Below, one piece after another: positions 29,428 to 29,808 of a stretch of DNA of 64,000 nt. This DNA is from Escherichia coli (GTDB lineage Bacteria; Pseudomonadota; Gammaproteobacteria; Enterobacterales; Enterobacteriaceae): NCBI RefSeq assembly GCF_003334405.1, contig NZ_QOWM01000005.1; one strand, written 5' to 3'. A program made the position numbers and the translations under genes. The notes under the pieces are model-generated. The model ran no database searches. It was not told the origin of the DNA and saw only the letters and a list, made by a program, of their open reading frames with translations. Every line of letters starts with the position of its first letter. Within the stretch, counting starts at the first letter, position 1.

Positions 29428-29808
29428 CGGTAAGCCGGATAAGGCGCTCGCGCCGCATCCGGCAACGGTGCCAGATGCCTGATGCGACGCTTGCGCGTCT
29501 TATCAGGCCTACAAATTCCCGCACCCTCCGTAGGCCGGATAAGGCGTTTACGCCGCATCCGGCAACGGTGCCGACTGCCTGATGCGACGCTTGCGCGTCT
29601 TATCAGGCCTACAAATTCCCGCACCCTCCGTAGGCCGGATAAGGCGTTTACGCCGCATCCGGCAACGGTGCCGACTGCCTGATGCGACGCTTGCGCGTCT
29701 TATCAGGCCTACAAATTCCCGCACCCTCCGTAGGCCGGATAAGGCGTTTACGCCGCATCCGGCAACAGTGCCGACTGCCTGATGCGACGCTCGCGCGTCT
29801 TATCAGGC
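29428..29808. repeat. Tandem REP/BIME array: about four 100-bp units, each holding an inverted pair of REP palindromes
   Basis: Unit ...gccggataaggcg...cgccgcatccggcaacggtgcc...gcctgatgcgacgcttgcgcgtcttatcaggcctacaaattcccgcaccctccgtag repeats at a 100-bp period; the ORF track shows two identical 66-aa translations offset by 100 bp. Confidence 0.9.

Follow-up and report, generated by a model that had tools for sequence, protein, structure and literature searches.

BIME-2 elements are defined by y and z2 REPs placed in inverse orientation, with one short linker within each pair and a flanking linker separating successive pairs, together with a GTAG foot, a mismatch in the stem and a tandem copy number that varies between strains (PMC3333891, PMC1187871). 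Their length polymorphism between strains has been published (PMC1187871, PMC3333891). The closest described counterpart of the array analyzed here is REP325 of Escherichia coli K-12, the REP cluster between yjdM and yjdN from which naRNA4 was defined. K-12 REP325 consists of six Y-l-Z2 repeats with identical 'U' motifs between them and is transcribed from the yjdM side (PMC4550694).

REP325 has been studied in a 2015 paper (PMC4550694) and a 2026 preprint (10.64898/2026.03.23.713779), which share a senior author and report conflicting results. According to the preprint, deletion of REP325 in K-12 lowered yjdM RNA and raised yjdN RNA, shifting the yjdM/yjdN ratio from 35 to about 1, and also changed growth; yjdN RNA expressed from a plasmid was about 8-fold higher without the array (10.64898/2026.03.23.713779). 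The array yielded a ladder of hairpin-ended transcripts, and bicyclomycin increased read-through from 23% to 39% only with the full 12-hairpin array, while fragments of 2 and 4 hairpins exhibited no Rho dependence; moreover, yjdM was stabilized only when yjdN was present (10.64898/2026.03.23.713779). The evidence for an attenuator and stabilizer comes from this one preprint and concerns only the six-unit K-12 allele.

Here, we analyzed a 64,000-nucleotide stretch of E. coli DNA (hereafter the window; RefSeq assembly GCF_003334405.1, contig NZ_QOWM01000005.1) and found that its array between yjdM and yjdN is a four-copy allele of REP325, of the BIME-2 type. A sequence-only reading of the window had called a BIME array with spurious open reading frames (ORFs) and a variable copy number; this interpretation held, whereas the name and literature of the locus (REP325/naRNA1-6, Rfam RF02564; PMC4550694; 10.64898/2026.03.23.713779) had been missed. 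The feature is already known: publications cover the locus as well as its structure, transcription and length polymorphism between strains. Taken jointly, a four-unit REP325 allele, a transcript role of the K-12 type and gain and loss of units very probably give the best explanation of the locus.

Structure of the array and comparison with K-12 REP325

A gap of 457 nt separates the stop of yjdM (29415) from the start of yjdN (29873), and the array falls wholly inside it. The upstream gene yjdM (29080..29415, + strand) encodes a zinc-ribbon protein of 111 aa (NCBIfam TIGR00686, 2.8e-63, 210.9 bits), and RefSeq places it at the same position in matching genomes; the downstream gene yjdN (29873..30316, + strand) encodes a VOC-family metalloprotein of 147 aa (NCBIfam NF007537, 1.2e-97, 324.2 bits). 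Both are now named as here, having been phnA and phnB. The synteny is crfC - yjdM - array - yjdN - phnC, with crfC located upstream on the - strand.

The repeat occupies 29427-29809 as four non-coding 100-bp units arranged head to tail. Tandem Repeats Finder reported one array at 29430-29809 with a period of 100, 3.8 copies, 97% matches, 0 indels and a score of 702, and a repeat search of the window detected 183-nt copies at spacings of 100 + 100. Self-comparison of 29400-29850 gave a base identity of 0.82 at lag 100 and 0.75 at lag 200, versus approximately 0.35 at other lags, which upholds the 100-bp period on which the sequence-only reading had staked its case. Its further statements, that four tandem REP/BIME units lie between phnA and phnB and that each unit carries two REP palindromes in opposite orientation, were likewise confirmed by the Y/Z2 units with GTAG/CTAC feet repeated in tandem in the intergenic region and by unit arms found as inverted copies. 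Four units here means 4 Y and 4 Z2 palindromes with 3 full linkers, that is, 8 hairpins.

Read along the + strand, unit 2 comprises GTAG (29530-29533), Y (29534-29563), a short linker (29564-29576), Z2 (29577-29608) and CTAC (29609-29612), followed by the 17-nt linker. Each palindromic unit forms its own 14+14-nt imperfect palindrome, those of unit 2 pairing 29534-29547 with 29550-29563 and 29577-29590 with 29595-29608. The two palindromes of a unit are also inverted copies of each other (GTAGGCCGGATAAGGCG / CGTCTTATCAGGCCTAC), and the arms 29530-29546 and 29596-29612, which run from GTAG into Y and from Z2 into CTAC, are 88% complementary. An inverted-repeat search with a 9-nt seed found none in the array because mismatches interrupt the REP stems, and a 6-nt seed recovered them. 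A generic REP pattern whose loop was fixed at 6 nt picked up only the second array of the window, at 59 kb, since the Z2 loop of REP325 has a different length. We assigned the palindromes as Y and Z2, not Z1, partly from what we take to be the consensus sequences and partly from the 'Y-l-Z2' description of Qian et al. (PMC4550694).

Typing of the units against K-12, together with Tandem Repeats Finder and the repeat search, gave the allele a-b-b-c (29427..29809, + strand). Unit 1 (type a; 29433..29509, +), with Y at 29434-29463 and Z2 at 29477-29508, is identical to the K-12 naRNA1 unit. Unit 2 (type b; 29533..29609, +), in which the inverted-repeat arms were found, is identical to K-12 naRNA2/naRNA4, and unit 3 (type b; 29633..29709, +) is identical to unit 2 and to K-12 naRNA4. 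The terminal unit 4 (type c; 29733..29809, +) carries two substitutions and is identical to the K-12 naRNA6 unit (unit 6). The GTAG and CTAC feet recur every 100 bp, and the outermost ones are degenerate, GTAA replacing GTAG at unit 1 and CTAC missing at unit 4. Between units lies the 17-nt linker AAATTCCCGCACCCTCC (29513..29529, 29613-29629 and 29713-29729, +), whose 3 exact matches in the window all fall inside the array, compared with 0.01 expected by chance. Qian et al. include this linker in their 'U motif' (PMC4550694).

Comparison with the BIME-2 family as described by Gilson and Bachellier revealed alternating Y/Z2, a short head-to-head and a longer tail-to-tail linker, and a tandem, extragenic and length-polymorphic arrangement in both, with no essential difference, as the linkers are locus-specific in the family description too. 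Inverted Y and Z2 alternate in the window array, GTAG/CTAC feet and the stem mismatch are present, the tandem copies are extragenic and vary between strains, and there is no IHF site: the IHF consensus WATCAANNNNTTR had no match in 29416-29872, and a BIME-1/IHF site was accordingly rejected. A CRISPR array was also rejected, in that the stretches between palindromes themselves repeat (the 17-nt linker three times and the 11-13-nt short linker four times) and variable spacers are lacking. A role at the DNA level, with the array serving as a binding or cleavage site for gyrase, DNA polymerase I or other factors, could be considered given that such gyrase binding is reported for the class (e.g. 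PMC1475751) and that the array is free of the IHF consensus, as expected for BIME-2 rather than BIME-1. We nevertheless regard it as rather unlikely, because the effects measured directly at this locus concern its transcripts (10.64898/2026.03.23.713779).

The region matches REP325 and its yjdM/yjdN flanks better than it matches any other BIME. It shares with MG1655 REP325 the locus, flanks, orientation, 17-nt linker, and first, last and b-type units. However, the K-12 array has six units, a-b-e-b-f-c (12 hairpins), whereas the window has four, a-b-b-c (8 hairpins), lacking the naRNA3-type (e) and naRNA5-type (f) variants. The yjdM-yjdN gap is 657 nt in MG1655 versus 457 nt in the window, a difference of exactly two units, and conversion of the K-12 array into the window allele would take a pair of 100-bp deletions or a single 200-bp crossover at a precise position. 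The name REP325 was taken from Rfam and the literature because the K-12 genome record lists no repeat_region for it.

Outside the array, only 2 SNPs separate the window from MG1655 across 29810-55600, and the window shares the split phnE of the K-12 type. Over approximately 49 kb outside the array, the only differences seen from MG1655/W3110 were positions 32874, 37155 and 21948 and a 1-nt indel near 10181. By this comparison, the window comes from a very close K-12-like background that is not MG1655 itself.

All four units matched Rfam RF02564 (naRNA4) end to end (model positions 1-77) on the + strand, unit 1 with 95 bits, units 2 and 3 with 111 each and unit 4 with 106.7, against a gathering score of 59.5; on the - strand, the array reached only about 53-55 bits, below gathering. 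In practice, the RF02564 model (naRNA4, CssrE) recognizes any Y-Z2 pair, including those at 59183-59592 and 32285-32365 of the window, and a match therefore demonstrates the REP-pair structure and not a dedicated small RNA gene. The former belong to a second BIME-2 array, the gltP-side one, on the - strand (59181-59668; 113-bp period, 4.3 copies, 96% identity), placed between the ORFs 58489-59178 (+) and 59709-61022 (-), with four naRNA4 matches of 71-79 bits (59183-59592). This array has the same Y/Z2 blocks in tandem as REP325 but differs in period, linkers and strand. The latter is a single Y/Z2-like REP pair on the - strand (32285-32365; naRNA4 69.1 bits, above gathering), which follows phnD (31262-32278) and precedes phnE.

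Open reading frames within the array

On its + strand, the array contains a 66-aa ORF twice in identical form (29482-29682 and 29582-29782) plus a third variant starting at 29682, and on its - strand overlapping ORFs of 58, 56, 154 and 87 aa. In favor of real small-protein genes, NCBI lists the exact 66-aa sequence for several E. coli genomes as a 'hypothetical protein', which belongs to a cluster with 53 members; REP325-derived NCBI proteins include OKS93544.1, AUL66185.1, AUL65551.1 and others. One 35-aa cluster member is named mannitol-1-phosphate 5-dehydrogenase, an evident mis-annotation. However, a 100-bp period, not being a multiple of 3, shifts the frame from unit to unit, and the 66-aa ORF accordingly begins anew at 29482, 29582 and 29682, each time in another of the three frames and with successive copies overlapping. 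Furthermore, the array ORFs vanish or change in number with the number of units, and most genomes have a single unit. RefSeq annotates no gene in the interval at 17 of the 18 fetched yjdM-yjdN loci; the exception is FDN-9 (NZ_CP158140.1; 490-840 of the fetched locus), in which the array contains a 'hypothetical protein' pseudogene called by PGAP, partial and frameshifted. That any of these ORFs is a genuine gene is thus next to impossible. The recurrence in three frames and the overlap indicate that their translations are read-through of REPs, and their dismissal as spurious by the sequence-only reading was correct. The region should be annotated as a repeat region (REP325, BIME-2 array) and not as genes, artefacts of this kind having already entered public protein databases.

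Copy number of REP325 across E. coli

Array length was determined by querying 5,426 complete E. coli genomes with the REP-free flanks only and reading the span of the match. A query containing the array was dropped, since among the matches listed its REPs also hit some 20 further places in each genome. Two systematic samples of 59 informative rows each were drawn in even steps down the ranking (combined n=118). A single unit was the commonest state (41 rows in sample 1 and 34 in sample 2; combined about 64%), followed by six units (5 and 10; about 13%), five (7 and 4; about 9%), two (2 and 6; about 7%), four (1 and 4; about 4%), three (2 and 0; about 2%) and seven (1 and 1; about 2%). Copy number therefore differs between strains as predicted from the window, ranging from 1 to 7 units in complete E. 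coli genomes. A 63-mer across the inter-unit junction (window 29590-29652) occurred in 2,264 of the 5,426 genomes (41.7%), i.e. those with at least two units, in agreement with the 42% for such arrays in sample 2. By junction count and flank samples, the single-unit share is about 58-64%.

In K-12-like genomes, the number of 'places' matched by the junction 63-mer exceeded N-1 by 1-2 (for example, 7 in a K-12 clone), and local BLAST against 49 kb of MG1655 found only the 5 expected junctions.

Multi-unit arrays accompanied flanks at least 98.6% identical to those of the window (K-12, B/REL606 and relatives), and the single-unit state accompanied more divergent flanks; even genomes with 100% identical flanks had 2 to 7 units. 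The inter-unit junction had 0 matches in 100,044 species-representative genomes. This null is in keeping with multi-unit arrays limited to a part of the species, though as weak evidence, since only one E. coli genome is among those scanned.

Typing of individual loci revealed a-b-e-b-f-c in MG1655, W3110 and FDN-9; a-b-e-f-c in REL606; h-e-b-f-c in MRSN346638; a-b-e-e-b-f-c in MB46; the window allele a-b-b-c also in FDAARGOS_1248; a-b-f-c in W3110-P, MDK6L1, Z1323CEC0014 and 2452; a-b-e-c in 2013C-4991; a-f-c in PEC408 and GM4792; a-c in 300709; k-l in the O157:H7 strain 2149; a plus one untyped unit in MC1061; and a single unit in JA0257, UID2309220013 and 2012C-4227. At these typed loci, all length changes were exact 100-bp steps inside the array, and the ends a and c were kept in most multi-unit alleles, the exceptions being MRSN346638, MC1061 and the O157:H7 strain. 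Four-unit alleles come in at least three distinct forms (abbc, abfc and abec), which arose independently in near-identical backgrounds.

Assemblies of K-12 laboratory strains also differed, with 6 units in MG1655 and W3110, 4 (a-b-f-c) in W3110-P and evolved derivatives, 3 (a-f-c) in GM4792 and 2 in MC1061. Either rapid laboratory change or assembly collapse could account for these differences.

The unit patterns suggest that unequal recombination or slippage during replication, acting between the near-identical internal units, would add and remove units. Strand exchange by TnpA-REP/RAYT at conserved C/T sites (the slash marking the cut) is a possible alternative route, and each unit contains the published TnpA-REP cleavage contexts TGCC/TGAT and GGCC/TACA (sites from PMC3333891). 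These observations also bear on whether the array expanded as a selfish or neutral element, an ancestral single Y-Z2 pair (a REPIN-like doublet) having multiplied in place through slippage, recombination or TnpA-REP activity, with the array length drifting under no selected function and its expression effects arising as side effects. Such an origin would accord with the commonest, one-unit state being associated with the more divergent flanks and the multi-unit state with nearly identical ones, with the spread from 2 to 7 units behind identical flanks, with the missing junction among the species representatives and with the TnpA-REP contexts in every unit. On the other hand, deletion of the K-12 array alters yjdM and yjdN RNA and growth (10.64898/2026.03.23.713779), and the array is therefore not phenotypically silent. 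We consider this account possible, though the less favored one; it concerns origin and is compatible with the regulatory effect in the preferred explanation, that of a REP325 allele with a K-12-type transcript role.

Given that only one unit is present in about 58-64% of genomes, a long array is dispensable and could be largely neutral. An essential chromosome organizer is harder to reconcile with the predominance of the single unit than an element that is dispensable, tunable or partly neutral. While nothing here is categorically new for biology, a population view of REP325 is a modest gain: the six-unit 'model REP' of K-12 is a minority allele (about 13%) and one unit is the commonest, which matters when the K-12 findings on termination, stabilization or nucleoid condensation are to be generalized.

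Transcript signals and the role of the array

The 77-nt units were predicted to fold as two hairpins (unit 1, -42.4 kcal/mol, z -4.4; unit 2, -42.8 kcal/mol, z -4.8), Y being interrupted by a 2x2 internal loop and Z2 by a 1x1 mismatch, and the 457-nt intergenic RNA gave -220.3 kcal/mol (z -10.4). RNAalifold on units of the three BIME loci of the window and two single-unit alleles recovered the same two hairpins, and four base pairs were kept through compensatory changes across the three loci. A terminator scan for a hairpin followed by a T run, on both strands, found none within 29427-29809. The array hairpins precede CAACGG... or ACAAATTCCC... and not T runs, and an intrinsic (Rho-independent) terminator was rejected because no U tract follows the hairpins.

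A consensus scan detected no sigma-70-like promoter match between the array and yjdN. Upstream of yjdM, the same kind of scan gave a sigma-70-like match, CCGACA-17-TATAAT (28984..29012, + strand; 10/12 positions), a candidate start of a yjdM-array-yjdN transcript. This upstream match and the lack of a terminator or promoter after the array are consistent with such a putative transcript, and transcription of REP325 from the yjdM promoter has been inferred for K-12 (PMC4550694).

Extrapolating from K-12, the array would be transcribed from the yjdM promoter as a 3'UTR or intercistronic element, whose stable Y and Z2 RNA hairpins may shield yjdM mRNA from 3'-to-5' decay. The hairpins would also attenuate transcription into yjdN, partly via Rho, and the expected outcome is a high yjdM:yjdN ratio. 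For the 8-hairpin allele of the window, we infer that the array probably acts as a local element that stabilizes yjdM mRNA and attenuates yjdN. The short, 2-hairpin version carried by most E. coli should lack Rho-dependent attenuation, judging from the fragments assayed in the preprint (10.64898/2026.03.23.713779). We tentatively suggest that REP325 copy number could serve as a fast-mutating, heritable 'dial' for the yjdM:yjdN ratio, in which case the K-12 conclusions might not extend species-wide and laboratory strains might differ silently at REP325.

A different role was proposed from the peer-reviewed 2015 work, in which naRNAs, especially naRNA4, act with HU to bridge distant cruciform REP DNA and condense the chromosome, making REP325 a nucleoid-organizing locus. 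The four units of the window pass the naRNA4 gathering score on the transcribed strand, and two of them are identical to K-12 naRNA4. It has been reported that naRNA4 binds HU (Qian et al. 2015, PMC4550694), that deletion of REP325 decondenses the nucleoid and plasmid-borne naRNA4 rescues it, and that REP-REP contacts in 3C require both HU and REP325 (PMC4550694). HU-RNA binding in K-12 has a Kd of about 32 nM (10.64898/2026.03.23.713779). In the same preprint, however, neither deletion nor overexpression of REP325 changed nucleoid volume, and neither a stable HU-cruciform-naRNA4 ternary complex nor long-range REP-REP contacts in Hi-C were observed (10.64898/2026.03.23.713779). Moreover, only one unit is present in most complete E. 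coli genomes, and the Y-Z2 units of the two other window loci also score as naRNA4, so REP325 is not special as a source of such RNA. Nucleoid organization is thus an improbable role for the array, more so than a DNA-level one, and we favor the local effect on the yjdM and yjdN transcripts.

Several other elements were observed in the window. Downstream of yjdN, phnE (about 32385-33172) is split into the ORFs 32321-32953 and 32803-33171 in overlapping frames and carries 2.9 copies of the 8-bp unit GCTGGCGT at 32789-32811; RefSeq marks the gene as 'frameshifted' in matching genomes. We take this split gene to be the K-12-type cryptic allele, presumably made by an extra 8-bp repeat. Rfam matches at gathering level were also obtained for the enterobacterial small RNA STnc630 (23602-23767, - strand, 181.8 bits) and for the selenocysteine insertion sequence SECIS_2 (56660-56714, + strand, 87.1 bits).
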